This document shows, piece by piece, positions 3 to 13,043 of a stretch of DNA of 13,043 nucleotides (positions within the stretch are counted from its first letter, which is position 1; every line of letters starts with the position of its first letter). Below the pieces are notes generated by a model that was not told the DNA's origin, did not search any database, and saw nothing but the letters and a program-made list of their open reading frames with translations. Both the position numbers and the translations under genes were made by a program. The stretch spans positions 1 to 13,043 of the forward strand of contig JANOQV010000122.1 in NCBI GenBank assembly GCA_031414955.1, read 5' to 3'. The DNA comes from Pedosphaera sp. (GTDB taxonomy: Bacteria; Verrucomicrobiota; Verrucomicrobiia; Limisphaerales; SIBH01).

Positions 3-2798
3 TTCACCATGGACCCGGAGTATTCGCGCTGCGTGTCGCGCGTCTTCGTGGACCTCTACAAGAAGGGCCACATCTATCGCGGCAAGCGCATGGTGAACTG
101 GTGCCCGGCCTCGCTCACCGCGCTCTCCGACGAGGAAGTGATCATGAAGGAGCAGAAGGGCTTCATGTATCACTTCAAGGTGGAAGTGGCGGAATCTCCA
201 ACTCGTAGCAGCCGAGGTAACGAGGCTCCAACTTCTTTGGATAAACCTGCTCATGGAGGTGATCAGAGCCTCCTCACGTCGGCTGCTACGAAGAATGAGA
301 AGACTGTCTTCGGCCCGGTCACGGACGCGGAAGGCCGCATCTGGCTCACCATTGCCACGACGCGCCCTGAGACAATTCCCGGCGACACGGCGGTGGCGGT
401 GAATCCGAAAGACCCGCGCTACGCCCATCTCATCGGCAAACACATCGTGCGGCCGCTGCCGGCGGAATTGCCGCGCGAGCAGAAGCTCATCCCCATCGTG
501 GGCGACGAGCATGTGGATTTCGAATTCGGCACTGGCGTGCTGAAGGTCACGCCCGCGCACGACAAGGCGGACTTTGAAATCGGCCAGCGCCATAAACTGC
601 CCGTGGTGGAAGTGATTGAAGCCGACGGCAAGATGAACGCGCTCGCCGGGCAGGACTTGAACGGACTGGACCGCTTTGCCGCGCGCAAGATCGCGGTGGA
701 GAAGCTCAAGGAGCTTGGCTCACTGGAGAAGGAGGAGCCTTACACGAACAACGTCGGCTACAGCGAGCGCGCGGACGTGCCCATCGAGCCGCGGTTGAGT
801 GAGCAGTGGTTCCTGAAGTATCCGAGCGTGGAGAAGTCGCAGCAGTGTGTGACTCAGGAGGAAAAAGAAAGTGCGCCCGGCGGTAAGTCTCTGGAAGCGC
901 CTCTCCGTGGGAAGAAGTTGGCTCACCAGCCTGCACCGAGCGCACTCACTGCGGACGACGTCTCAGCGCGGGTGGCTCACCGTCATGTCGCGGCGGATAT
1001 GCTTATCCCGACAGCGCCGTCGGGACATCCTTTAGCATCAGCGACTGCGAGCGGCAACGATGAGTTGCAGAAGATGAATTTTTATCCGCCGCGCTGGGCG
1101 AAGGTGTACGACCACTGGATGACCGGCATTCAAGACTGGTGCATCAGCCGCCAGCTTTGGTGGGGGCATCGGATTCCGGTGTGGACGCGGCGCGTCAAGG
1201 TGACAAATGAAAACTTCGCTGCCGAGTCACTGAACTTACTCCTTCCAGTAGCGAAGATTCCAACCCAGGAGAACTCACGGCCTGTCGTGCGCATGTTCCG
1301 CGCGGTTGACGGACTCGAAGTCCCTATTGTCTGTGAGGAGAGAACTCTGCTGTTTCCCGAATCAGGAGGTGAGTTCGACGTTTTCATCGCCACAGATGAT
1401 GAGGAACGCGGAAAAGTTTTGGAGAAATTTGGCTTCACCCAAGACCCCGACGTTCTCGACACCTGGTTCAGTTCGTGGCTTTGGCCGTTCGCCACGATGG
1501 GCTGGCCGGAGAACACGGAGGCGTTGAAGAAGTTTTATCCCACCACCGACCTCGTCACCGGGCCGGACATCATCTTCTTCTGGGTCGCGCGCATGATCAT
1601 GGCGGGCTACGAGTGGATGGGCGAGATGCCGTTTCGCAACGTCTATTTCACCGGCATCATCCGCGACAAGCAGGGCCGCAAGATGTCGAAGTCGCTCGGC
1701 AATTCGCCCGACCCGCTCGACCTCATCAACACCTACGGTGCCGATGCGCTCCGCTTCGGCATCATGCGCAGCGCGCCCGCCGGACAGGATCTGCTGTTCG
1801 ACGAACAGTCCGTGGAGTTGGGCCGCAACTTCTGCAACAAACTCTGGAACGCCTGCCGCTTCCGGCAGATGCAGGGCGGCGCGGCGGAAGAGGAAATTCA
1901 AACGTCGTATCTCACCAGCGACGACAAATGGATTCTGCTCAAGCTCGACGCGGCCATCCGCGAAGTGACCATTGCGTTGAACACCTACAAGTTCAACGAG
2001 GCGGCCAACGCGCTCTACCGTTTCTTCTGGAGCGAATGTTGCGACTGGTACGTGGAAGCAACCAAGGCCGTGCTGCAGGCGCCGGACGATCCAGCCAACC
2101 CACGCATCGCCGCGCGCAAGCAGAACACGCTGGCCGTCATGGATTTCGTGCTCTCGCACACGCTTCGTCTGTTTCATCCGTTCCTGCCGTTCATCACCGA
2201 GGAGTTGTGGCAGGGCATGGGCTTCAACGGTGATCTCCCGGCTGGGCAGGGCGGCGACACGATCATGTTCGCCCGCTGGCCGATGCCCTTCGATCAGGAG
2301 ATGAAGGACTTCTATGCGCTCGACGACTGCTACCTCGAACGCGTGGACAACAAATACGAACTCGTGCGCCAGGGCCGCAATCTGCGCAGCGAAGGACGCA
2401 TCGCCCCGAACATCAAACTGCGTTTCGTGCTGAAGCCGGTGAACGATCTCCCGCCACACGACCTCGCGGTGATCAAGATTCTGCTGAACGCCGAGCAGTT
2501 CGAAACCAACGTTGAGTTCACGCCGCCGAAGGGCGCGCTGCGCGCTGCGACGGCATTGGGTGAATTGTTCCTGCCACTAGAAGGCCTGATCGATTTCGCC
2601 GCCGAACGCCTGCGACTAGAAAAGGAACTGGCGAAGATCGCCGCCGAGATCGACACGGTGACGCAGAAGCTCGCCAACCCGAACTTCACCCAGAAGGTTC
2701 CGCCCAAGGTGCTCGCCGATCACCAGCAGCGCCTCGTGGACTGGCAGGCCAAGGCCGCGCAGGTGCGGACGGCGCTGGATGGTTTGGGGGCGGCTTAA
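3..2798 (+). CDS. valS: Valyl-tRNA synthetase (5'-truncated by the window edge), with three lineage-specific insertions
   Basis: The frame is open from the window start (F-T-M-D...). ValRS motifs present: VNWCP, ATTRPET, FGTGVLKVTPAHD, DWCISRQLWWGHRIP, DVLDTWFSS, GRKMSKSLGN, and a C-terminal coiled coil (ERLRLEKEL...KLANPNF). The HIGH motif lies upstream of the window. Confidence 0.98.
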   Translation, partial: FTMDPEYSRCVSRVFVDLYKKGHIYRGKRMVNWCPASLTALSDEEVIMKEQKGFMYHFKVEVAESPTRSSRGNEAPTSLDKPAHGGDQSLLTSAATKNEKTVFGPVTDAEGRIWLTIATTRPETIPGDTAVAVNPKDPRYAHLIGKHIVRPLPAELPREQKLIPIVGDEHVDFEFGTGVLKVTPAHDKADFEIGQRHKLPVVEVIEADGKMNALAGQDLNGLDRFAARKIAVEKLKELGSLEKEEPYTNNVGYSERADVPIEPRLSEQWFLKYPSVEKSQQCVTQEEKESAPGGKSLEAPLRGKKLAHQPAPSALTADDVSARVAHRHVAADMLIPTAPSGHPLASATASGNDELQKMNFYPPRWAKVYDHWMTGIQDWCISRQLWWGHRIPVWTRRVKVTNENFAAESLNLLLPVAKIPTQENSRPVVRMFRAVDGLEVPIVCEERTLLFPESGGEFDVFIATDDEERGKVLEKFGFTQDPDVLDTWFSSWLWPFATMGWPENTEALKKFYPTTDLVTGPDIIFFWVARMIMAGYEWMGEMPFRNVYFTGIIRDKQGRKMSKSLGNSPDPLDLINTYGADALRFGIMRSAPAGQDLLFDEQSVELGRNFCNKLWNACRFRQMQGGAAEEEIQTSYLTSDDKWILLKLDAAIREVTIALNTYKFNEAANALYRFFWSECCDWYVEATKAVLQAPDDPANPRIAARKQNTLAVMDFVLSHTLRLFHPFLPFITEELWQGMGFNGDLPAGQGGDTIMFARWPMPFDQEMKDFYALDDCYLERVDNKYELVRQGRNLRSEGRIAPNIKLRFVLKPVNDLPPHDLAVIKILLNAEQFETNVEFTPPKGALRAATALGELFLPLEGLIDFAAERLRLEKELAKIAAEIDTVTQKLANPNFTQKVPPKVLADHQQRLVDWQAKAAQVRTALDGLGAA
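203..291. repeat. REP-like inverted doublet (REPIN, family A), in-frame inside valS
   Basis: Arm 203-228 (tcgtagcagccgaggtaacgaggctc) vs reverse complement of 266-291 (tcgtagcagccgacgtgaggaggctc): 23/26 identical. Each arm is GTAG followed by a hairpin. Translated as RSSRGNEA...QSLLTSAAT. Confidence 0.9.
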
Positions 2799-2826
2799 GT
2801 CCAGTGCGCCTGACTGTCGCTGGCCT

Positions 2827-2929
2827 GGTAGGGCGTCGCTGTCCTCAGCGCGTCGGGGTGATGTGCGCGCAAGTTTTCAGACTCTATTCCGACTTGGAAG
2901 ACGGCGCGGTGGGGACACCGCGCCCTACC
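2827..2929. repeat. Intergenic REP-like inverted doublet (family B)
   Basis: Arm 2827-2855 (ggtagggcgtcgctgtcctcagcgcgtcg) vs reverse complement of 2902-2929 (ggtagggcgcggtgtccccaccgcgccg). Both carry a GTAG foot. The right arm has a perfect 9-bp stem, ggcgcggtg-tccc-caccgcgcc. Confidence 0.85.
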
Positions 2930-3002
2930 GCGCCACTGCCCGCCGCCATCAACTTGCTATGCTGCGAATAGCGCCCGGCTAAGCAACGTCAACCTCCGCC
3001 TG

Positions 3003-6000
3003 ATGAACAACCCATCGTTCAGAAAACTTTGTCCGCTGCTGACCCTGGCTGCCGCCGCGTGCCTCGCCGCGGAGGCACCGAAAGGCGTCAAGGCACCCTC
3101 TGGCTGGAGCGTGACGCTGTTCGCCGCGCCGACCAATGTGAGCTATCCGACCTGCCTCAGCACTTCACCGAATGGCGATGTGTTTGTCGGCATCGACGAG
3201 AATGGTTCCATCGACGCCAAGCCGAATCGCGGTCGCGTCGTGCGCTGCACGGACACCGATGGCGACGGACAGGCGGACAAGTTCATCACCTTCGCCACCA
3301 TGGATTCGCCGCGCGGCATCTGGTTCGACCACAACGTGCTCTATGTCCAGCACCCGCCTTTCGTTTCGGCGTTCATTGACGAGAATGGCGACGGCGTTTC
3401 GGATCGCAGCGAAGTGCTCGTGCAAGGGCTGGGCTTCGATCTCAAGTTTCGCGGCGCGGACCACACCATCAACGGCATGAGGATGGGCATCGACGGTTTC
3501 CTCTACATCGCGTGCGGCGATTACGGCGGGACCAACGCGGTGGGCAAGGACGGCACGCGCATCCAGCTTCACGGCGGCGGCGTGGTGCGCGTGCGCCCGG
3601 ACGGCAGCGGGTTGGAACTCGTCTCCCAGGGTCAGCGCAACATTTACGACGTGGCGGTGTCGCCCGAACTGGATCTCTTCACCCGCGACAACACGAACGA
3701 CGGCGACGGCTGGGATGTGCGCCTCTCCCACGTCGTCATGGGCGGCAACTACGGCTACCCGCGGCTCTTCAAAAAGTTCGGCGACGAAATCATCCAGCCG
3801 CTCGCCGATTATGGCGGCGGTTCTCCGTGCGGGGCGTTGTTCCTCGATGAGCCAGGCTTTCCCGCCGGCTTCGGGCGCGGACTCTACACCGTGGAATGGG
3901 GGCGCGGCGGCATCATGCGCCATCCGCTCACGGCCAGCGGCGCGGGCTTCAAGGCGGGCCAGGAGAAATTCATCGAGCTGAACCGCCCGACCGATTTCGA
4001 CGTGGATGGCAGCGGGCGGCTCTACATCTCGAGTTGGCAGGGCGCGACCTTCACCTACAACGGACCGAACGCAGGCTACCTCGTGCAAGTCACGCCGCCG
4101 GATTGGAAGCTGAAGGCGTTTCCTGATTTGAAGAAGGCTTCCAACACCGAACTGGTGAAACACATCGCCTCGCCGAGCGCCTTCGCCCGGCTTTACGCGC
4201 AGCGGGAAATCCTGCGCCGGGGTGAGAACGCCGAACTGGCAAGCGGGCTGGAGAAAATCGCGCTGGCGGAGGCGCCAGTTCCGCAGCGTGTCGCGGCGAT
4301 CTTCACCTTGAAACAATTGCTGGGTGAGAAGTCGCATCCCGCGCTGGTGCGCCTGGCGCGGGTGGACGCGGTGCGCGAGTTCGCCTTGCGGGCGCTGGCG
4401 GATGATGTGCGCCTGGCCAAGGCCGTTTCGGCGGAGACCTTCGTGGCCGCGCTGTCAGACACGAATGCCCGCGTGCGCTTGCAGGCGGCCACCGCGCTCG
4501 CGCGGTTGGGCAAGTCCGAAGCCGGCCCCGCGCTGCTCCCGCTCGTGGCGGACAGCGATGTGGTGGTCGCGCATGTGGCGGTTCATGCGCTGGCGCAGAT
4601 GCGCGCGGTCAACGCTTGCCTCGACGCGTTCGAGTCTCCCGGCTCGGCAAAGTATGTGGCCGGTGCCGGGCGCGCCTTGCAGTGGATGCACGAGTCTCGT
4701 GTCGTGGATGGGCTGCTGGCGCGACTCAGCAAAACCACCGACGCCCATGCGCGCCAGATCATCATCAAGACCCTGGCCCGCCTGGCCAATCGCGAGGACG
4801 ACTGGAACGGCAAGTGGTGGGGCACGCGGCCTGACACCACTGGACCGTATTTCAAACCGGTGAAATGGAGTGAGAGTGGGCGAATCGAGAACGCGCTGCG
4901 AACGGAACTAAGCAAGGCCGATGTCGTCACGCTGCCGGCCCTGGCTACGACGCTGCAAATCAATCGCGTGGATCTGCCTGAATTGATTCCTGCCGTGATC
5001 AAGCTGGCGGACAGTGATTCCCAGTTCCGACCGGTGGCCGTGGAGATGTTCAGCACCGGGACCGCGCTGCCGGACCAGGCGGTTCCGCTGCTGCGTCGCA
5101 TTGCTATCACGCCCGTCGAAGACACGGCCTTGCGCGTGAAGTCCATTCGCGCCCTGGCGAAGTCCGGCCAATCCGCCGCGCTCGATGCTGCCGTGGCCGC
5201 GCTCTCGTTGCCGGGCAAGCCGCCAGCCCCGATCAGCAGCGCCTGGGAAGAGTTCGCGCGGGATCCGAAGGTCGGACGCAATGTCGATTACTTCGCCCGG
5301 TTGGTGGTTGGTGATTCCAGCGAGCAGCGCGTGCTGGCTTACGCGGTGTTGGCGAACCGGGCCTCGGGCAAGGTTTCTGAACGCAACGGCCGGGCCGCCG
5401 CCGTGCAGGCGGTGGAGAAGGGCTGGACGACTGCCGACAGCACGGTGGCTCTGTTGCAGGCCATCAACCGGCTCAAGCTCGACGGCTACAACAACCAAGT
5501 GCGCGGATTGATGAACAACTCGCGGCCTGAAGTGGCCGCCGCCGCGCGGCTCGCGGCCAAGACGTTGCGCATCGATCAGCAGCCCGCCGCCGGTGCGCTG
5601 ATGATCGAGAAGCTGAAGTACGAGGAGGTTCTGGCCGTGACCGCCAAGGCGAAGGGCGATGTGAGGGCAGGCGAGGAATTGTTCACGCGCCTGGGCTGCG
5701 TGGCCTGCCACACCACGAGTTCAACCGAGGCTCCGAAGGGGCCGTTTCTTGGCGGCATCGGCACGCGCTACAGCCGGGCCGAATTGTGCGAATCCATTCT
5801 GAAGCCGAACGCCAAGATCGCGCAGGGCTTCGAGACGCAGTGGTTCAAGACCAAGGACGATGAAGAGATCGAAGGCTTCGTGACGCGCGAGGGCGGCGAT
5901 GATCTCGATGTGCGCAACGTGGCCGGCATCACCGCCACTCTGGCGAAGAAAGACATCGTCGAGCGGGCCATGCGCGAGAAGTCGGTCATGCCCGAAAACC

Positions 6001-6071
6001 TCGCGGACAAGGTCACGCCCGGCGAACTCGCCTCGCTGCTGGCGTTTCTCGAAGGTTTGAAAGCGAAGTGA
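3003..6071 (+). CDS. PVC-type exported dehydrogenase-like beta-propeller / HEAT-repeat / c-type heme-binding protein
   Basis: N-terminal signal-like segment (LLTLAAAACLAAEA). Sorbosone/glucose-dehydrogenase-like propeller with DTDGDGQAD and DENGDGVSD loops and a GQRNIYD motif. Central Ala/Leu-rich HEAT-like repeats (DTNARVRLQAATALARL). C-terminal cytochrome c domain with CVACH, GPFLGGIG, ESILKPNAKI and SVMP. Confidence 0.88.
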   Translation: MNNPSFRKLCPLLTLAAAACLAAEAPKGVKAPSGWSVTLFAAPTNVSYPTCLSTSPNGDVFVGIDENGSIDAKPNRGRVVRCTDTDGDGQADKFITFATMDSPRGIWFDHNVLYVQHPPFVSAFIDENGDGVSDRSEVLVQGLGFDLKFRGADHTINGMRMGIDGFLYIACGDYGGTNAVGKDGTRIQLHGGGVVRVRPDGSGLELVSQGQRNIYDVAVSPELDLFTRDNTNDGDGWDVRLSHVVMGGNYGYPRLFKKFGDEIIQPLADYGGGSPCGALFLDEPGFPAGFGRGLYTVEWGRGGIMRHPLTASGAGFKAGQEKFIELNRPTDFDVDGSGRLYISSWQGATFTYNGPNAGYLVQVTPPDWKLKAFPDLKKASNTELVKHIASPSAFARLYAQREILRRGENAELASGLEKIALAEAPVPQRVAAIFTLKQLLGEKSHPALVRLARVDAVREFALRALADDVRLAKAVSAETFVAALSDTNARVRLQAATALARLGKSEAGPALLPLVADSDVVVAHVAVHALAQMRAVNACLDAFESPGSAKYVAGAGRALQWMHESRVVDGLLARLSKTTDAHARQIIIKTLARLANREDDWNGKWWGTRPDTTGPYFKPVKWSESGRIENALRTELSKADVVTLPALATTLQINRVDLPELIPAVIKLADSDSQFRPVAVEMFSTGTALPDQAVPLLRRIAITPVEDTALRVKSIRALAKSGQSAALDAAVAALSLPGKPPAPISSAWEEFARDPKVGRNVDYFARLVVGDSSEQRVLAYAVLANRASGKVSERNGRAAAVQAVEKGWTTADSTVALLQAINRLKLDGYNNQVRGLMNNSRPEVAAAARLAAKTLRIDQQPAAGALMIEKLKYEEVLAVTAKAKGDVRAGEELFTRLGCVACHTTSSTEAPKGPFLGGIGTRYSRAELCESILKPNAKIAQGFETQWFKTKDDEEIEGFVTREGGDDLDVRNVAGITATLAKKDIVERAMREKSVMPENLADKVTPGELASLLAFLEGLKAK

Positions 6072-6086
6072 TTCGCAAACGGAAAG

Positions 6087-6183
6087 AGCGGCGCTAAAGC
6101 GACCGCACTCCAAACGCTTTGCGACGGAGAGGGTGCCGGATGCTGCGCGCCAGCGTTTGGAGTGCGGTCGCTTTAGCGCCGCT
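6087..6183. repeat. Intergenic perfect 32-bp inverted repeat (REP-like doublet, family C)
   Basis: 6087-6118 (agcggcgctaaagcgaccgcactccaaacgct) is the exact reverse complement of 6152-6183. Each arm has GGAG-T followed by the hairpin gcgg-t-cgc-ttta-gcg-ccgc. Confidence 0.9.
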
Positions 6184-6199
6184 TTCGCCACCTGGCCAC

Positions 6200-6225
6200 G
6201 TAACCATTTCTCTCTTCCCAACGTA
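6200..6225 (+). promoter_or_regulatory. Putative ECF sigma-type (autoregulatory) promoter
   Basis: GTAAC (6200-6204), a 17-nt pyrimidine-rich spacer, then CGTA (6222-6225), directly upstream of an ECF sigma gene. Matches the general AAC / CGT pattern of ECF promoters. Confidence 0.55.
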
Positions 6226-6304
6226 TAACTACTCCGTGACCGCAGGAGTGGCGTCATGGACAGGGTTTGCGGATGGGGGCGAAGTCGTTAAGCAGGGCGT
6301 GGTC

Positions 6305-6895
6305 ATGGACCAAAAAGCCTGCGACGAAATCGCCCTGATCCGACGCATTCGCGACGGCGCGCCGGATGAATTCTCGGAAATCATCCGGCGGCACCAGGCG
6401 CGCGTGTTTGCGATCCTTTCGCGCTACGAGCGCGACCGGCAACTGGTCGAGGACCTGGCACAGGACACTTTCGTGAAAGCCTGGAAGGCGCTCGGGCAGT
6501 TCGATGGTCGCGCGCCCTTCGAGCACTGGCTCTCGCGCATCGCGGTGCATGTGGCCATCGATCACCTGCGGGCGCGGCGGGATCGCGAGGTGCGGTTCAG
6601 CGATCTGGGCGACGAAGTGTTGGAGTGGTTGCACGAGGTCGAACCGGAGCACGGCCCCGGGCCGGAGGCGGCGCGCGAGATTCTGCACCTGGCCATGCGC
6701 AAGCTGAGTCCCGAGGACCGGCTCGTGCTGACCATGCTGGAGATCGAGGAGTACAGCGTGAAGGAAATCTGCGCGCGCACCGGTTGGAGCAGTATCACGA
6801 CCCGGGTGCGGGCTTTTCGCGCGCGGGCCAAACTCAAGACGGCGCTGGAGGAACTGGAACAGTCGGCGGAAAAAGTCCGCCCAGAAGCAAGATGA
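6305..6895 (+). CDS. ECF-family RNA polymerase sigma-70 factor
   Basis: Region 2 (EDLAQDTFVKAWKALGQFDGRAPFEHWLSRIA) and region 4 (LSPEDRLVLTMLEIEEYSVKEIC...RAFRARAKLK). ATG at 6305; an in-frame GTG at 6236 is an alternative start. Confidence 0.95.
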   Translation: MDQKACDEIALIRRIRDGAPDEFSEIIRRHQARVFAILSRYERDRQLVEDLAQDTFVKAWKALGQFDGRAPFEHWLSRIAVHVAIDHLRARRDREVRFSDLGDEVLEWLHEVEPEHGPGPEAAREILHLAMRKLSPEDRLVLTMLEIEEYSVKEICARTGWSSITTRVRAFRARAKLKTALEELEQSAEKVRPEAR

Positions 6896-7188
6896 GGGAA
6901 GCGAAACACAAACGGTTGATGGCCGCGGCGCGGAGGGTTCCTCCCATCGAGGTGCCCGTCGGTTTTCGTGCTGATGTGTTGCGCATCATTCGCAGCCGTG
7001 AATCCGGGGCAGGCGCATCCGTCTCGCCGGTCATCGACCAGCTCTCCGCGCTCTTTCCACGCCTGGCGACGGCGGCGCTGGTGGTCATTGTGGCTTCAGT
7101 TGGGTTCGAGTATTTCGCCGGCGGCGACGTGGCGGCGCAACTCACCGAGGTGTCCGAACAATGGCTGCTGCCCCTGGACTGGCTATGA
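6892..7188 (+). CDS. Small single-TM protein, putative anti-sigma factor
   Basis: ATGA overlap with the sigma stop codon. 98 aa, with N-terminal LMAAARR...VPVGFRADVL and one hydrophobic helix (LATAALVVIVASVGF). Position is typical of an anti-sigma gene. Confidence 0.7.
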   Translation: MREAKHKRLMAAARRVPPIEVPVGFRADVLRIIRSRESGAGASVSPVIDQLSALFPRLATAALVVIVASVGFEYFAGGDVAAQLTEVSEQWLLPLDWL

Positions 7189-7574
7189 AGGCGCTCAAGG
7201 TTCTCGCTTTGCTCGGTCTGGTTTTCGCGGCCGGCGTGGTCGCGGGCGTCACCGGGACACGTTTTGCGGTGAAGAAAGTTATTGAGCAGGCCACGCAGAA
7301 GCCGGAAGTGGTGCGCGTTAAACTGGAGGTGGAATTGACGCGCACGCTCAAACTTACCCCGGAGCAGCGCCCCAAGGTCCTGGAAATCATCGGGCGCGGC
7401 TTCGAGGACATTCAACAACTGCGCGGCGATTTCCGACCCAGGCTCGGTGCGATTCTCAAACGCAGCGAGCGGGAGATTCGCGAAGTGCTGGATGAGCGGC
7501 AAAAAGTGAAACTTGACCTGATGCTCAAGAAGAAATCTCCGTCCGTGCCGGCGCTCGCCCGGCCCGAATTGTAG
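7185..7574 (+). CDS. Small membrane-anchored or exported helical protein (CpxP/Spy-like or metal-sensor-like accessory)
   Basis: ATGA overlap with the previous gene. N-terminal hydrophobic segment (VLALLGLVFAAGVVAGV). Two LTxxQ-like motifs (LKLTPEQR, VLDERQK). Confidence 0.7.
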   Translation: MKALKVLALLGLVFAAGVVAGVTGTRFAVKKVIEQATQKPEVVRVKLEVELTRTLKLTPEQRPKVLEIIGRGFEDIQQLRGDFRPRLGAILKRSEREIREVLDERQKVKLDLMLKKKSPSVPALARPEL

Positions 7575-7580
7575 ACCGAA

Positions 7581-7691
7581 CGGCGCGCGGACATTCCTCT
7601 CCGCAGCAAGCCACTACCACCGCAGGCTTCAGGCGAGTTCGAGACCGTTCGTCGCCACCATATTGCTGTGGACAGGAATGTCCGCGTGCCG
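7581..7691. repeat. Degenerate REP-like inverted doublet (family D) between convergent genes
   Basis: 7581-7609 (cggcgcgcggacattcctctccgcagcaa) vs reverse complement of 7663-7691 (cggcacgcggacattcctgtccacagcaa): 26/29 identical. Consensus hairpin is gcggaca-ttcc-tgtccgc. The foot reads GGCG/GGCA instead of GGAG. Confidence 0.8.
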
Positions 7692-7695
7692 GCTC

Positions 7696-8799
7696 CTATT
7701 CCGGCAAGGCTCGTCCCAGGAAGTGGAGGAAGTTTCCGTGCGAGATGCCTGCAATGTCCTGCTCGCTGTAGCCGCGGGCGCGAAGGAGTTCCGGGACGCG
7801 CGCCAGGTCGGCGACGGTTCGAAGATCCATCGGGGTCTGTTCCGTGCCGAACCCGCCGTCGAGATCCGAGCCGATGCCAGAATGCTTTGCGCTCCCGGCG
7901 ATCTGGCAGACGTGGTCGATGTGCTCGACGAGCTTTTCCAGGGTGAGCCCGACGGCTTGCGGCGTGGTTTGCTGGCGCACCCAGTTCGGCACCATCATCC
8001 ACGCGTCCAAGGCGGCACCAATGACCGCGCCGCGTTGCGTCAAGGCTTTGATCTGTTCATCGCTCAATTGTCGCTGGTGCGGCGCGAGGGCGCGGCAGTC
8101 GGAATGGCTCGCCCAGATCGGACCCTGGTAGAGGTCGAGCGCTTCCCAGAATTCCTCGTCTGTCAGATGCGTGACGTCGAGAATCAGGCCGAGGCGATCC
8201 ATTTCCCGGAGCAGTTCGCGACCCCGTGCGGGAAATTTACCGGTGGCATCGGTGCCTTGGGCATAAAGTCCCGGCCCATAGTGCGCCGGCCCCAGCGCGC
8301 GCAATCCTTGCTCATAGGATTGTTCGAGATGTTTGAAGGAGAGGATGGAATCCGCGCCTTCGAGTGAGAGAATGTAGCCGATGGGTTTCACCACCTCTGG
8401 ACTCGTAGCAGCCGAGGTAACGAGGCTCTGACTTTCTCCAGTCCAAAGGTCCACCTGCCGCTCCAACTCGCCGCGCGTCCTTATCTGCTCCATCTCGCCG
8501 CGGTGTTCCATGGCGCGATACCATGCGAGCTGGCCTTGCGTCTGCGCCCAGGCCTGCTCCGGCGAATGCCAGCCGGGCCGGGGATTGCCACGCTTCACGT
8601 AGCGGGCGATTTGCGTGGCTACGCACACGCCGATGCCGCCGCGTCGCATCTCGGGAAAGCAGACCGTGCCGCGTTCACGATCCGGTTTGTCCGTGAGGTG
8701 CTGTTCCCGTTCATGAATTTCCGCGAGCGGCCGGGTGAAGTCGCGGTTCCACTCCAGCGCGTTCATGGCGAGGTCGAGGTGAGCGTCGAGAATGAGCAT
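7696..8799 (-). CDS. Membrane dipeptidase family (peptidase M19, amidohydrolase fold)
   Basis: MLILDAHLD, SLEGAD, LDVTHL, ASHSDCR and GIGSDLDGG motifs. Start placed at ATG 8799, because the HxD motif is normally at the N-terminus. Confidence 0.93.
   Translation of the reverse strand: MLILDAHLDLAMNALEWNRDFTRPLAEIHEREQHLTDKPDRERGTVCFPEMRRGGIGVCVATQIARYVKRGNPRPGWHSPEQAWAQTQGQLAWYRAMEHRGEMEQIRTRGELERQVDLWTGESQSLVTSAATSPEVVKPIGYILSLEGADSILSFKHLEQSYEQGLRALGPAHYGPGLYAQGTDATGKFPARGRELLREMDRLGLILDVTHLTDEEFWEALDLYQGPIWASHSDCRALAPHQRQLSDEQIKALTQRGAVIGAALDAWMMVPNWVRQQTTPQAVGLTLEKLVEHIDHVCQIAGSAKHSGIGSDLDGGFGTEQTPMDLRTVADLARVPELLRARGYSEQDIAGISHGNFLHFLGRALPE
8401..8431. repeat. Solo family-A REP arm, in-frame inside the dipeptidase gene
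   Basis: 8401-8428 (actcgtagcagccgaggtaacgaggctc) is identical over 28/28 nt to 201-228. On the coding strand it reads QSLVTSAATS. Confidence 0.92.
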
Positions 8800-9028
8800 G
8801 GGGCAATTGACGAACGTGGCCTGGTGAAAGGCGAGGGAAAATTCCTCTGCGCCGGAGAAGCTACGCCGGCTTTCGGACCGAATTGCCGCTCGGGCTGGGA
8901 CCTTCTTCCAGCCCAATTCCCATGGTCCCAGATCGGCTGCGGACATGGCTGGCCAAGAAATGAATCGAAGATTTCTCCGGACGGGTGTTTCAATCCGATC
9001 CGGTCGCGCCCGTCGCACCGCAATATTC

Positions 9029-9757
9029 ATGCACAATCAAGACCTGAATCATTTGCCTCAGCCGGTCGGCTCCTTGGTGTCGAGTTGGAAACCGCCCGCA
9101 CCTCCGGGCTGCGAGCCGATGCCAGGCTTGTTCTGCCGTCTCGAACCGCTCGATCCGGAGCGTCATGCCCGCGCGCTTTTCGAGGCCAATGCGGAAGAGG
9201 CCGATGGCCGGAGTTGGACCTATCTGCCCTACGGGCCGTTTGAGAGTTTTGAAAACTACCGGGCGTGGATGGGGCAGACCTGTGGCGGAAGTGATCCGCT
9301 CTTCTTCACCATTCAGGATGGCGCGCGGGCCGTTCCGGTTGGTCTGGCGAGCTACCTGCGCATTGATCCCCAAGCTGGTTCCATCGAAGTGGGGCATCTC
9401 AAGTTCTCGCCCCAGATGCAGCGCACGCCCATCGCGACGGAGGCGATGTTCCTGATGATGCAGCGCGCCTTTGCGCTGGGCTACAGGCGCTACGAGTGGA
9501 AGTGCCATTCGCTCAACGCCCCTTCGCGCACCGCTGCGCAGCGTCTGGGCTTTTCCTTCGAGGGAATCTTTCGCCAGGCTGCGGTGGTCAAGGGACGGAG
9601 CCGAGACACGGCTTGGTATTCGGTGATCGATCAGGAATGGCCACGACTGAGGGCCGTCTTCGAGCAATGGCTTTCGCCGGACAATTTTGACGCGCAAGGA
9701 AAGCAGCGTCGGGCGCTTTCGGATCTGACACGTCCGCTGCTGCACCGGCAGGGTTGA
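9029..9757 (+). CDS. GNAT family N-acetyltransferase (RimJ/RimL-like)
   Basis: WTYLPYGPF, GSIEVGH, LGYRRYEWKC, NAPSRTAAQRLGFSFEGIFRQ and KGRSRDTAWYS motifs. ATG at 9029. Confidence 0.93.
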   Translation: MHNQDLNHLPQPVGSLVSSWKPPAPPGCEPMPGLFCRLEPLDPERHARALFEANAEEADGRSWTYLPYGPFESFENYRAWMGQTCGGSDPLFFTIQDGARAVPVGLASYLRIDPQAGSIEVGHLKFSPQMQRTPIATEAMFLMMQRAFALGYRRYEWKCHSLNAPSRTAAQRLGFSFEGIFRQAAVVKGRSRDTAWYSVIDQEWPRLRAVFEQWLSPDNFDAQGKQRRALSDLTRPLLHRQG

Positions 9758-9760
9758 GCG

Positions 9761-9883
9761 TTACCTCAGCAACTCAACCAGCCGTTCGCGTGCCTGGCGA
9801 GAAAGCCATCCGGCCGGTGTGCCGCGCCGCAGCGCCATGTGGAAGCGGTGATCCTCGTCGGGAAAAAGCTCGGAGAAGTTTAT
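9761..9883 (-). pseudogene. Possible gene remnant (40 codons, begins ATA)
   Basis: The minus strand reads INFSELFPDEDHRFHMALRRGTPAGWLSRQARERLVELLR*, which is protein-like but has no ATG/GTG/TTG at its start. Any family assignment is from memory only and unverified. Confidence 0.35.
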
Positions 9884-9901
9884 CGTAAATTCAGCAACAA
9901 T

Positions 9902-11122
9902 TCACGACCCCAGCTTGCGCAACACCGCGCCCAGTCCGCCTTCCTCCGGTTCGATGTCGATCGGTGCGTCGGGTTGCCCTGCGCTGCCGGTGCTGGCGGG
10001 CCTGGCTGATGGTTCAGTCATTGGTCGCGCGGTTTTGCCCGGGGCTTTTTCCGCGCAGGGCAGGGGAGGAGGTTCGGCGACTTCGCTGTCCGGCGCCTCG
10101 TCGTTGGCATTGGGCTTATGCCACGTCGCGCGTTTCGCCATCCAGGTCTGGTAGCGCGCGAAAGTCCACATGCCTGAGTCCGCTCCCATCTCCATCACCT
10201 GCATGATTTTGAAGAACTCGCGGTTGCGGATGAAGTTCTTCACCGGAATGGTCGGCATCAGAATCTCACACTCGGGGACGCGAATTTCCAAATCAGGCCG
10301 GTAGCGCAGTCGTTGTGTCACCACCGCCACCAGACAATCCGCCAACTGCGCCGCGATCGCGTTCTGGATCTCCGCCGGGAACGCCCCCACCACTCGTTGC
10401 AGCGCCTCGATGCACGAGGAGGAATGCACCGTGGCCAGCACCAGATGGCCGGTCTCCGCGGCGCTCAAGGTCAGCCGCAAGGTGGACGGATCGCGCATCT
10501 CGCCGACCATCAACACGTCGGGATCCTCGCGCAAGGAGTCGAGCAACGCCTGCTCGAAGCTCGGCGTGTCGCGCCCGACTTCGCGCTGGCGCAGAAAGGC
10601 GCGACGCGGCTTGAACACGTATTCGATGGGGCTCTCCAGGGTGATGATGTGCCGCGCCTCGCTCAGGTTCAGCTCCTGAATCAGCGCGGCCATGGTCGAA
10701 GATTTGCCGCAACCCGTCGGTCCGCTCAGGAGAATCAGCCCATGCGGCGAAGTCACGAGCCGCTTCAGGTCGGGATGCAGGTTCAGGTTCTCGATCGTCG
10801 CCTGAAAGGTGCTCAACAACCGGATGGCGAAGCCCACGCCCCGCGAAGTCTGCAGCACATTGATGCGACAGCGCACCCCGGCAATCGTCCGCGACAGGTC
10901 ATGCGAGCGCCGTTCCAGAAATTCATTCCAATGCGCCGTGCCGATCACCTCCCGCGCGAACTCCAGCAGCGTCTTGGCCGGCATCGTTTCGCCCAAGGTG
11001 CGCAGCGCGCCCCGCACCCGCAGCGTCGCGGGCAGGCCCGCTTCGAGATGCAGGTCGCTCGCGCCCTGTTCGCGCGCCACGGCGATGAGAGATTCCAAGG
11101 TCATGCCTCTGGTCACAGCCAT
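9902..11122 (-). CDS. PilT/PilU family type IV pilus-type ATPase with a low-complexity C-terminal tail
   Basis: GASDLHL, Walker A GPTGCGKS, RQREVGRDT, Walker B region LREDPDVLMVGEMRD, His box ETGHLVLATVH. Alternative start ATG at 11104. Confidence 0.92.
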   Translation of the reverse strand: MAVTRGMTLESLIAVAREQGASDLHLEAGLPATLRVRGALRTLGETMPAKTLLEFAREVIGTAHWNEFLERRSHDLSRTIAGVRCRINVLQTSRGVGFAIRLLSTFQATIENLNLHPDLKRLVTSPHGLILLSGPTGCGKSSTMAALIQELNLSEARHIITLESPIEYVFKPRRAFLRQREVGRDTPSFEQALLDSLREDPDVLMVGEMRDPSTLRLTLSAAETGHLVLATVHSSSCIEALQRVVGAFPAEIQNAIAAQLADCLVAVVTQRLRYRPDLEIRVPECEILMPTIPVKNFIRNREFFKIMQVMEMGADSGMWTFARYQTWMAKRATWHKPNANDEAPDSEVAEPPPLPCAEKAPGKTARPMTEPSARPASTGSAGQPDAPIDIEPEEGGLGAVLRKLGS

Positions 11123-11203
11123 CTCCGTTCAACAATCCAACGGCCCGATGGTTGCAAACCGATTGGAGCGCGCCACCCCGCCGTCGTGCAAGAGTGGAGT
11201 GCG

Positions 11204-11389
11204 CCAGGCGAAGTTGATGTTCTTGTTCAACCCCGACTCTCCGGCCCGCGCCAGCCAGGCGAGCAGATGCTGACACTCCGCCGTCCGGGTGCGGCGACGG
11301 TTTAATATGATGAGGCCGGTCTCGGGAGCAGTGCCGGCGAGGGCGAGGAAATCCTGCCGGTTACAGGTGATGAAGATGGCCTGGGTTTC
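11204..11389 (-). pseudogene. C-terminal remnant of a PIN-like (DUF5615/VapC45-like) toxin gene
   Basis: AIFITCNRQDFLAL...GLIILNRRR resembles the 'liT.d.DF...Giivl' core of DUF5615 PIN-like proteins. There is no N-terminal acidic motif or start codon in the ~110 nt before the dnaE stop. Confidence 0.6.
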
Positions 11390-11498
11390 CAGCCACTGGT
11401 GGCGGCCACGTGGGACGGGCGGAAGGGCGCATCGCCGAAGTTGGTTCCACCCGAGGACCGGCTGGCCATCGGCTGCCCGAAGCACAGCCCGTGGCGCC

Positions 11499-13043
11499 CT
11501 ACTCGCCGGCCATGGCCGGCTCCGACTTCCGCTCCCAAGCGCGCTTGGGCTTCTCTGGCAGGGTCGTGTCCACGCGGGCGTAATAGGTTTCTTCGCCGAA
11601 CTGGTGGTCGGCGGCCTGCTGGAGTTCCAGCGAGGGCGCGACGAAGTATTTGTCGTGGGTCTCAATGAAAACGATCTCGCCGCCGGGTTGGCGGATGCAG
11701 AGGAAGAGCGGGCATTTGCCGGGGAACCGGCCGACCAGCTCGAGGATGCCGTGCAGCTTCTCTTCGTTGAGGTGGACGGCGTTGAGGCGCAGGTGGACTT
11801 GTTTGGTGAATTTCTTCGGCGCCTCTTCCAGCGGCATCAACTCAGTCGGGAACAATTTCGGCGGACCATCATCGTTGTTTACTTCGCCCACGACGAGGAG
11901 CGCGCGGTTTACTTCGAGGAGCGCGCGGTACTTGTCGTAGTTCTCGTTCATGCAGAGCATGGCGAACGCGCCTTCCAGATCTTCGAGCGTGACCATCGCG
12001 TAGGGCTTGCCGCTCTTCTTCGACATGCCGGCGGTCACGCCGGTGATGATGCCGCCCAGGCGCGTCATGCTGCGGCTGGGGAGCGCGGCGGCGGTCTTGG
12101 AATTCGCCAGGGTGTAACGCTCCAGAATCGGCGCGAAGGGCGTGAGCGGATGGCCGGTGATGTAGAAGCCAAGCAACTCCTTCTCGTTGGAAAGCAGTTC
12201 GCTCTGCGACCATTCCGGCACGCGGAGCAGTCCGTCGTCCTTGGTCTCGGCGCGTTCCTCCAACATGCCGAACATGGACACCTGGCCCCGCGCCCGATCC
12301 GTGGCGGCACTGGACGCGCGGCCCACCACGCGGTCGATGGACGCGAAGAGCGTGGCGCGCGTCTCGCCAAAGCAATCGCAGCCGCCGGATTTAATCAGCG
12401 ACTCAATCGCCTTCTTGTTCACCGCACGCAGATCGACGCGCTCCAGCATGTCGGGAAATGATTTGAAGGGGCCGCCTTCCGTGCGCGCGGCGAGGATGCT
12501 TTCGACGGCCGTTTCACCCACGCCTTTGATCGCGGCGAGACCGAAGCGGATGACGGAGCGCCGAGCATCGCTCGGCTCGGTGGCTTTCCCGTCGCCCGGC
12601 CGAGCAATGCCCGGCGCTCCGCGGCGCGGTGCGGGGGCGAAGAACATCTCGCCTTCGTTCACGTCGGGTTGGAGCACATCGACGCCCATCGAACGCGCCT
12701 CGTTAAGCAGGATGACCAGCTTGTCCGTGCTGCTCAGGTCGTTCGTCATCATGGCGCACAGGAACTCCACCGGGTAGTTCGCCTTCAGATACGCCGTCTG
12801 ATACGCCACGATGGCGTAAGCCGCCGCGTGTGATTTGTTGAAACCGTAGCCGGCAAATTTTTCCAGCAAGTCGAACACTTCGTTCGCCTTCGACTCGGGA
12901 ATGTTGTTCTTCGCCTTGCAGCCTTTGACGAAGTTCACGCGCTGGCTCTGCATCTCCTCGATCTTCTTCTTGCCCATCGCGCGCCGCAGCAAATCCGCCG
13001 CGCCCAGCGTGTAGCCGGCGAGCAACTGCGTGGCCTGCATGAC
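11499..13043 (-). CDS. dnaE: DNA polymerase III alpha subunit (3' half; 5' end outside the window)
   Basis: ADLLRRAMGKK, FAGYGFNKSHAAAY, AYLKANYP, IRFGLAAIKGVG (HhH region), EKELLGFYITGHPL, and an OB-fold (AMVTLEDLEG). Confidence 0.98.
   Translation of the reverse strand, partial: VMQATQLLAGYTLGAADLLRRAMGKKKIEEMQSQRVNFVKGCKAKNNIPESKANEVFDLLEKFAGYGFNKSHAAAYAIVAYQTAYLKANYPVEFLCAMMTNDLSSTDKLVILLNEARSMGVDVLQPDVNEGEMFFAPAPRRGAPGIARPGDGKATEPSDARRSVIRFGLAAIKGVGETAVESILAARTEGGPFKSFPDMLERVDLRAVNKKAIESLIKSGGCDCFGETRATLFASIDRVVGRASSAATDRARGQVSMFGMLEERAETKDDGLLRVPEWSQSELLSNEKELLGFYITGHPLTPFAPILERYTLANSKTAAALPSRSMTRLGGIITGVTAGMSKKSGKPYAMVTLEDLEGAFAMLCMNENYDKYRALLEVNRALLVVGEVNNDDGPPKLFPTELMPLEEAPKKFTKQVHLRLNAVHLNEEKLHGILELVGRFPGKCPLFLCIRQPGGEIVFIETHDKYFVAPSLELQQAADHQFGEETYYARVDTTLPEKPKRAWERKSEPAMAGE
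12554..12621. repeat. REP-like inverted doublet (family E), in-frame inside dnaE
   Basis: 12554-12576 (cggagcgccgagcatcgctcggc) vs reverse complement of 12599-12621 (cggagcgccgggcattgctcggc): 21/23 identical. Each arm is GGAG-C plus a 7-bp stem (gccgagc-atc-gctcggc in the left arm). Translated as RGAPGIARPGDGKATEPSDARRS. Confidence 0.85.

Follow-up and report, generated by a model that had tools for sequence, protein, structure and literature searches.

Dispersed REP/REPIN-type repeats carried in frame in valS, an M19 dipeptidase gene and dnaE, and their probable placement by RAYT transposases

The 13,043-nucleotide stretch of DNA analyzed here (the window) is the entire contig C122 (JANOQV010000122.1) of a Pedosphaera sp. 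genome bin (G000; assembly GCA_031414955.1). Three of its genes contain short inverted repeats of the kind known as repetitive extragenic palindromic (REP) elements and, when paired, as REP doublets forming hairpins (REPINs). The first is valS, encoding valyl-tRNA synthetase (3–2798, plus strand; Pfam tRNA-synt_1, Anticodon_1 and Val_tRNA-synt_C), which has lost its 5′ end at the contig start. The second encodes an M19 membrane dipeptidase (7696–8802, minus strand; Pfam Peptidase_M19, 1.2e-49), and the third is dnaE (11499–13043, minus strand; Pfam DNA_pol3_finger, HHH_6 and OB fold), of which the C-terminal 514 codons are present before the contig end truncates the gene. All three reading frames are open through their repeats. 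Repeat searches, together with the open frames, confirm both the repeats that an initial annotation of the window had reported in these genes and the elements of the same design that it had reported in three intergenic gaps.

Repeat elements of the window

The repeat family designated A is represented in valS by a doublet on the plus strand. Its left arm at 203–228 has a GTAG foot and is read as RSSRGNEA, and its inverted right arm at 266–291 is read as QSLLTSAAT; the two 26-nt arms are 88% complementary and are separated by a spacer of 37 nt (229–265). A solo family A arm, recognized by its match to the valS arm, lies at 8401–8428 on the plus strand within the dipeptidase gene, where the minus-strand reading is SQSLVTSAAT. 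The 28 bases at 201–228 and 8401–8428 are identical, and the direct match of 201–234 with 8401–8434 is 94%. The doublet in dnaE belongs to a different family, E, and consists of two 23-nt arms on the plus strand (12554–12576 and, inverted, 12599–12621) that are 91% complementary and flank a 22-nt spacer (12577–12598). The family E arm combines a GGAGC foot with a 7-bp hairpin, GCCGAGC/GCTCGGC, and the minus-strand reading of the doublet gives GAPGIARPGDGKATEPSDARRS.

The three intergenic doublets, to which no strand is assigned, are a GTAG-footed doublet of two arm types at 2827–2929 (type B at 2827–2861 and type C at 2902–2929), a family D doublet at 6087–6183 with fully complementary arms of 32 nt (6087–6118 and 6152–6183), and a family F doublet at 7581–7691 with 29-nt arms (7581–7609 and 7663–7691) that are 90% complementary. 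The family F doublet is similar to repeats flanking the gene for a REP-associated tyrosine transposase (RAYT) on contig C94. Folding was evaluated as single-stranded DNA against 200 shuffles. The valS doublet folds at −27.7 kcal/mol (z −6.45, none of the shuffles as good) and the dnaE doublet at −32.3 kcal/mol (z −3.10, two shuffles as good), and the B/C, D and F doublets have z values of −3.55, −11.61 and −6.82, respectively. The solo dipeptidase arm folds no better than its shuffles (z 0.39, 129 of 200 as good). No Rfam family exceeds its gathering threshold in the window, so that neither an intron-like element nor any other known RNA element is indicated.

The remaining genes, all assigned by Pfam, encode a DUF7133/HEAT/cytochrome c protein (3003–6071) and an ECF sigma factor (6257–6895) on the plus strand, a GNAT acetyltransferase (9056–9757, plus strand) and a PilT-like ATPase (9902–11122, minus strand). 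Some of the in-frame elements of families E and C lie in paralogues of the DUF7133/HEAT/cytochrome c gene on contigs C180, C209 and C267. The source bin comprises 6.55 Mb in 313 contigs and is 95.9% complete with 5.84% contamination. The valS gene has a single match in it, and dnaE is present in two versions (window 11763–13043 and contig C54, 26960–28255) that overlap over 1300 nt with 88.8% identity. At the same loop the two versions have palindromic inserts that differ, and the C54 copy reaches the end of its contig; the second version could belong to a co-binned related strain, in keeping with the contamination, or could be a paralogue.

Orthologous sites in relatives

Orthologues of the three host genes were taken from 30 relatives, of which 11 belong to the same genus, 2 to the same family and 17 to the same order. 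At the corresponding codons, close relatives are either empty or occupied by other repeat families, and empty alleles are present in same-genus genomes at all three sites. In valS the repeat lies at a position after FKVEV (site 1), where a lineage-specific segment (195–347, plus strand) takes the place of the 18 nt encoding QPGTFL in empty alleles. Among 19 aligned genomes this site is empty, with a turn of 6–7 codons resembling AEQPGTF, in ten, including G001, G002, G005, G006 and G011 of the same genus, and is filled by 102–195 nt in the other nine. G003 has the family A doublet found in the window, its left arm having lost complementarity without compensation, and G018 has a family E doublet; in most of the other filled alleles the inverted repeats are of additional types, some having feet of the GTAG or GGAGCGC type. 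The solved Thermus thermophilus ValRS has no counterpart to query residues 63–108 (46 residues), the gap at residue 204 falling exactly at the insert. A structural model of the window's ValS is poor (predicted local distance difference test, pLDDT, 63.5; predicted template modeling score, pTM, 0.41), with low confidence at residues 66–99, and was set aside as a means of locating the insert.

Two further lineage-specific inserts are present in valS, at site 2 (approximately 855–1073, 84 residues versus 15 in T. thermophilus ValRS) and site 3 (approximately 1186–1412, 83 residues versus 30), where G+C is lower (0.558 at 1001–1500). They were rejected as REPs in this genome, having no repeated-DNA matches in it; relatives have inverted doublets at site 2.

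In dnaE the variable site is situated between FAPA and VIRFG. It comprises six codons in 9 of 28 sequences, including those of G010 and G011 of the same genus, and holds inserts in the others. Inverted arms of 18–27 nt are seen in six of the filled sequences, with G000 and G007 having family E, G004 family A, and G009, G005 and G003 arms of three other types, so that at least five arm types occupy this loop within one genus. The arms of several relatives are perfect over 26–27 nt. The arm type found in dnaE of G009 has 45 copies in that genome, 114 in G005, 26 in G003, 5 in G001 and 1 in G000; that of G005 has 42 copies there, 9 in G000 and at most 2 elsewhere; and that of G003 has 67 copies there, 4 in G000, 2 in G009, 1 in G001 and none in G005, with reversed controls of 0 throughout. 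Because each tested arm type is amplified in its own genome, different lineage-specific families appear to have entered the same loop separately. A leftover, GCGCTCCGTC, comes after a complete doublet in G005 and has exactly the sequence of the family E junction in G000 and G007, a hint that a newer element may have landed inside an older one. In the solved Taq Pol III alpha subunit the loop has 8 residues, versus 31 here, with the gap exactly at the insert. G007, whose genome is 96% complete, has a single dnaE match, and this carries the E doublet.

The dipeptidase site, between LW.. and PIGYILSLEGAD, is empty or differently filled in orthologues, and the G016 gene has an LTSAAT arm at the same site. 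The structural model of this protein is of good quality (mean pLDDT 84.3, pTM 0.88) and places the repeat peptide (residues 124–135, SQSLVTSAATSP), with pLDDT below 50, between the helix 110–121 and the strand 141–148. Large variable blocks are few in the alignments; ValS has about five, and the dipeptidase and the 514 residues of DnaE have one each.

Copy number and reading frame across the genome

Arms were counted genome-wide with 3–4 mismatches allowed and with the reversed pattern as control. The counts are 47 for family A, 101 for family E, and 39, 25, 33 and 19 for the intergenic types B, C, D and F, respectively, with 0 for every control. The arms are multi-copy dispersed DNA, located both between and within genes, rather than single-copy sequences. 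Inverted doublets account for 40 of the 59 family E elements, with spans mostly of 67–72 nt (range 62–75), and for 12 of the 35 family A elements, with spans of 67–96 nt and spacers that vary among copies. In public data the family A arm occurs at no fewer than 128 loci, and 68 of the 80 matches listed are metagenome-assembled genomes (MAGs) labeled Verrucomicrobiota, Limisphaerales or Pedosphaera.

An element was called in frame when an open frame of at least 60 codons extended on each side and both flanks had a positive coding score, the codon-usage score having been trained on 1856 long open reading frames (ORFs). By this rule 15 of 35 family A elements and 13 of 59 family E elements are in frame, as are 6 of 19 for C, 2 of 32 for B, 1 of 25 for D and none of 15 for F; under a stricter rule the shares are 11 of 30 (A) and 11 of 51 (E). 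A broken frame between flanks that both code on one strand was seen in three family E cases and in none of family A. Other abundant families of the genome are never in frame (0 of 91, 0 of 38 and 0 of 25), indicating that the colonization of coding sequence is family-specific. The share of A and E elements lying inside genes (22–43%) departs from the predominantly extragenic location of REP and REPIN elements. Ten of the 12 family A doublets are intragenic, and eight of these ten have a span divisible by three. None of the in-frame family E doublets has a span of 1 modulo 3, versus 12 of the 30 other doublets (Fisher p = 0.019). The pattern of doublet spans fits a filter on reading frame.

Outside the window, 26 of the 31 ORFs that span in-frame elements have Pfam domains (E ≤ 1e-5) and 5 have none. 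The former include NuoL, a P-type ATPase, an MFS transporter, a MurC-MurB fusion, LeuRS, UvrA, HsdM, Ser/Thr kinases and PSCyt/PSD proteins. A peptide of the form RSSR[GR]xEA...DQSLLTSAAT is encoded by 11 of the 15 in-frame family A copies. Family E peptides include GAPSIARP...EPSDARRS and the readings of the two other frames; all three frames are used. The peptides of both families recur across unrelated genes. The proposal in the initial annotation that several families occupy coding sequence in frame, essential genes included, and yield stereotyped peptides is borne out by the copy numbers, the empty alleles and the presence of other families at the same loops.

Two sets of candidates were discarded. 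A scan of 14-mers present at least eight times returned 1917 "in-frame" elements and was rejected, these being mostly conserved coding motifs of paralogues, and two k-mer "families" (42 of 42 and 7 of 10 in frame, without inverted doublets) were set aside as protein motifs. The LeuRS ORF (1214 residues; contig C259, 16972–20613, locus L117) has an in-frame family C arm and also an internal PBECR3 nuclease-like domain (PF18812, E 6.8e-18, residues 743–853). Tandem repeats of heptanucleotides, with units such as AAATCCC, CAAGATC and AAGCTCC, are abundant genome-wide, and three in-frame family A doublets (contigs C183, C219 and C61) have spacers with three copies of the heptamer GTTTCGG or GTTCCGC, in which slippage by one unit would shift the frame.

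Origin of the in-frame repeats and relation to known systems

The genome has 12 matches to Y1_Tnp. Four Y1 genes score above the NCBIfam cut-off for RAYTs and five are of the IS200 type, one ORF with an internal stop having been excluded. All four above-cut-off RAYT genes adjoin GGAG-footed repeats, mostly of the GGAGCGC type, and two are flanked on both sides; a further Y1 gene adjoins a family B doublet. Two of the 30 RAYT loci taken from relatives are informative. In G024 the best-matching RAYT gene (100.9 bits; locus L248, 1171–1896) has E-like doublets directly at its start and stop, and a RAYT-like gene of G005 has on both sides the repeat family found in dnaE of that genome. The only family A doublet among these loci lies approximately 1 kb from a RAYT gene in G024. 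The link to RAYTs is direct for E-like repeats in G024 and would hold by analogy for family E in the source genome. The mobilization by RAYTs proposed at the outset is thus supported only in part, by the E-like repeats that flank a RAYT gene in G024 and by the related GGAGCGC-footed families that flank RAYT genes here; beside family A no RAYT gene is found.

The G024 RAYT gene itself has an in-frame REP pair in its coding sequence, at approximately 1408–1453. RAYT-like Y1 domains of 58–78 bits, below the cut-off, are also embedded in open frames exceeding 1000 codons in many relatives (for example, G015 C178 6815–7240, G006 C885 1154–1579, G007 C147 2431–2850 and G001 C349 2192–2614), and may be fused or domesticated forms.

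These observations make it probable that dispersed REP/REPIN-type repeats, likely placed by RAYTs (HUH Y1 transposases), lie in frame in valS, the M19 dipeptidase gene and dnaE, where they are predicted to form disordered surface loops. Insertion would be carried out by the transposase through single-stranded DNA, copies would persist only where the frame is kept and the loop is tolerant, so that the few such loops per protein would become recurrent hot spots, and the insert peptides would be made and be roughly neutral. We strongly infer that the repeats are made as disordered loops, because valS is single-copy with an open frame, the sole dnaE of G007 is filled, broken frames are rare, and the dipeptidase model places the peptide in such a loop. 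Predicted junction-spanning peptides include VEVAESPTR...SSR and SLLTSAATK for ValS and, for DnaE, the segment GAPGIARPGDGK.

Public sequencing runs were compared with the window through Logan contigs only, at 98% identity or more. Exact contigs in two metagenome runs span 165–227 and 264–406, covering both junctions of the valS doublet. Depth over the right arm exceeds 1000, as expected for a community-wide repeat, and one public contig represents an empty allele in which 194 is joined to 348 via CAGCCCGGCACGTTCCTG.

Several points weigh against this reading. Family A arms have the GTAG foot and little hairpin of their own, the palindrome being formed by the doublet, and the family E foot is GGAG(C) rather than the canonical GTAG; the REP/REPIN architecture that had initially been assigned to these repeats is supported by their inverted doublets, copy number and filled versus empty sites. 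The valS insert is not of clean repeat size, since 153 nt replace 18 nt and its 3′ part (292–347) is unique DNA. The low confidence of the ValS model at residues 66–99 is not specific to the insert, because the whole model is poor. The genome-wide counts are to be read as counts per bin, given the contamination and the two versions of dnaE. In this genome no RAYT gene was found next to either family, A or E, an absence that is not established because the 313-contig assembly breaks at repeats. Synthesis of the loops is deduced from frame conservation, and RNA-labeled public runs contain only 0.12–0.23 of the sampled words of the stretch, the RNA label of one of them (run X12) being a guess. The valS spacer at 231–259 has no public contig at 98% identity or more, and the two runs with junction contigs may be the bin's own source sample.

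The hot spots might also result from targeting, with the foot of a resident REP serving as a landing pad for later REPINs and families succeeding one another at the same codon, an explanation that we regard as possible but clearly the less probable one. The leftover family E junction behind the complete doublet in G005 dnaE, the at least five arm types at that one site within the genus, the conserved right-hand piece adjoining A or E doublets at valS site 1 in three lineages, and the REP pair inside the G024 RAYT gene would all be accounted for in this way. However, a single nested remnant was found, no target motif is conserved beyond the arms, and the variable sites are few and coincide with loops of ordinary indel variation, as selection alone would produce.

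Alternatively, family A, and perhaps other families, might be independent of RAYTs, being a MITE (a miniature transposable element with inverted repeats) of another transposon type or having spread by recombination or gene conversion. This is unlikely, although the missing RAYT neighbor both here and in the relatives' loci, apart from the distant G024 doublet, is in its favor, as are the arms, which behave like terminal inverted repeats of 25 nt and form no hairpin individually, and the high variability of spacers and spans. Against it, the GTAG foot is described as a hallmark of RAYT-associated REPs in the portion of PMC3733652 that deals with them, no target-site duplication is apparent at the junctions, and other GTAG families coexist with Y1 transposase genes in the same genome.

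It is very improbable that the intragenic copies have been co-opted, that is, that the hairpin, in DNA or in mRNA, or the peptide is kept by selection because it pauses translation, takes part in RNA processing, provides a binding motif or serves some similar function. The dominance of one frame in family A, in which 11 of 15 copies read RSSR..EA or SL.TSAAT, and the intragenic position of most A doublets would be expected of a selected function. However, a TAG closes one of the A arm's frames, and this alone biases frame use; family E uses all three frames, the host proteins are unrelated, close relatives lack the inserts or have swapped families, and the left valS arm of G003 has lost its complementarity without compensation. 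That the repeats were brought in by mis-joins during assembly or binning is scarcely credible: the bin is fragmented and partly contaminated and the valS spacer is missing from public contigs, but exact contigs cover the valS junctions, each insert has the same gene on both sides, read in one frame, and independent genomes share the inserts (G003 the family and site in valS, G007 those in dnaE).

Rickettsia palindromic elements (RPEs), reportedly described by Ogata et al. in 2000 and 2002, are in many cases longer than the elements found here. The likeness between the two is one of behavior, both being non-autonomous palindromes in frame in likely functional genes, dnaE included; the elements found here differ in having GTAG (A) or GGAGC (E) feet rather than a CGTC terminus, in their length of 25–90 nt and in coexisting with RAYT genes. 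RPEs have CGTC ends and are Rickettsia-specific, and the passages on them in PMC3733652 assign them no dedicated transposase. The view that Rickettsia is the main precedent for such insertions holds in that RPEs do lie in frame, and is incomplete in that intragenic REPs beyond Rickettsia were catalogued in 2013, according to the sections of the survey by Di Nocera, De Gregorio and Rocco (2013, BMC Genomics 14:522, PMC3733652) drawn on here.

Those sections describe GTAG- and CGTC-tagged REPs, often dimers, located wholly within ORFs for known proteins and encoding approximately 7–30 residues, with inserts that are usually dimers of 20–30 residues. Most of the intragenic GTAG REPs are from the verrucomicrobium Opitutus terrae, named 70 times in Additional file 3, where the sampled matches are rows of the intragenic-REP table, and the hosts include uvrA, DNA ligase, helicases, tRNA synthetases and, in R. 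conorii, dnaE (PMC3733652). Two Xanthomonas species are recorded with different REPs at about the same recB site (PMC3733652). The repeats in ValS, the M19 dipeptidase and DnaE resemble these in being tagged REPs inside ORFs of at least 120 residues for known proteins. They differ in coming from Limisphaerales-type MAGs, in the GGAGC foot of family E, in the largely intragenic location of family A doublets (10 of 12) and in the combination of at least five arm types with empty alleles at the dnaE loop. Because intragenic REPs were catalogued in 2013, with O. terrae, tRNA synthetases and dnaE among the entries, the idea of in-frame REPs is not new.

Classical REPINs are described as extragenic and their RAYTs as typically single-copy in the part of Bertels and Rainey (2011, PMC3116915) on which this comparison is based. 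With the REPIN-RAYT system, as presented there and by Nunvar et al. (2010, as cited in PMC3733652), the present repeats share the inverted REP pair, copy numbers of tens to hundreds and, for E-like repeats in G024, the bracketed RAYT gene; they differ in occurring with 12 Y1_Tnp matches and many coexisting families and in the 22–43% of A and E elements inside genes. The available text of the RepRanger paper (PMC12306157) does not treat intragenic REPs. In a literature search that covered few subscription journals, turnover of multiple REP families at one orthologous loop was not found, apart from the recB remark in the portion of PMC3733652 cited above. Apparently new, in the sense of not having been found in print, are the way in which empty alleles and no fewer than five arm types alternate at a single dnaE loop in one genus, an old family that is mostly intragenic, and the GGAGC-footed families.

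No new category is proposed here: the Rickettsia work and the 2013 REP survey had already described palindromic repeats in frame. The repeats mark naturally insertion-tolerant sites in ValS, DnaE and M19 peptidases, account for stereotyped low-complexity peptides in protein predictions from Verrucomicrobia, and provide a data set for the question of whether hot spots result from selection or from REP-targeted insertion. As a tentative extension, a small number of permissive loops in ValS, DnaE and other essential proteins of Limisphaerales-type bacteria might act as landing pads where REPIN families insert into or replace residents, so that genes, which tolerate only frame-preserving changes, would be the main long-term reservoir of old families; if true, loop content would be a fast-evolving marker of transposon history in conserved enzymes. 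The occurrence of empty and filled alleles among congeners indicates that, in this uncultured order, small non-autonomous repeats keep remodeling the same surface loops of essential enzymes.

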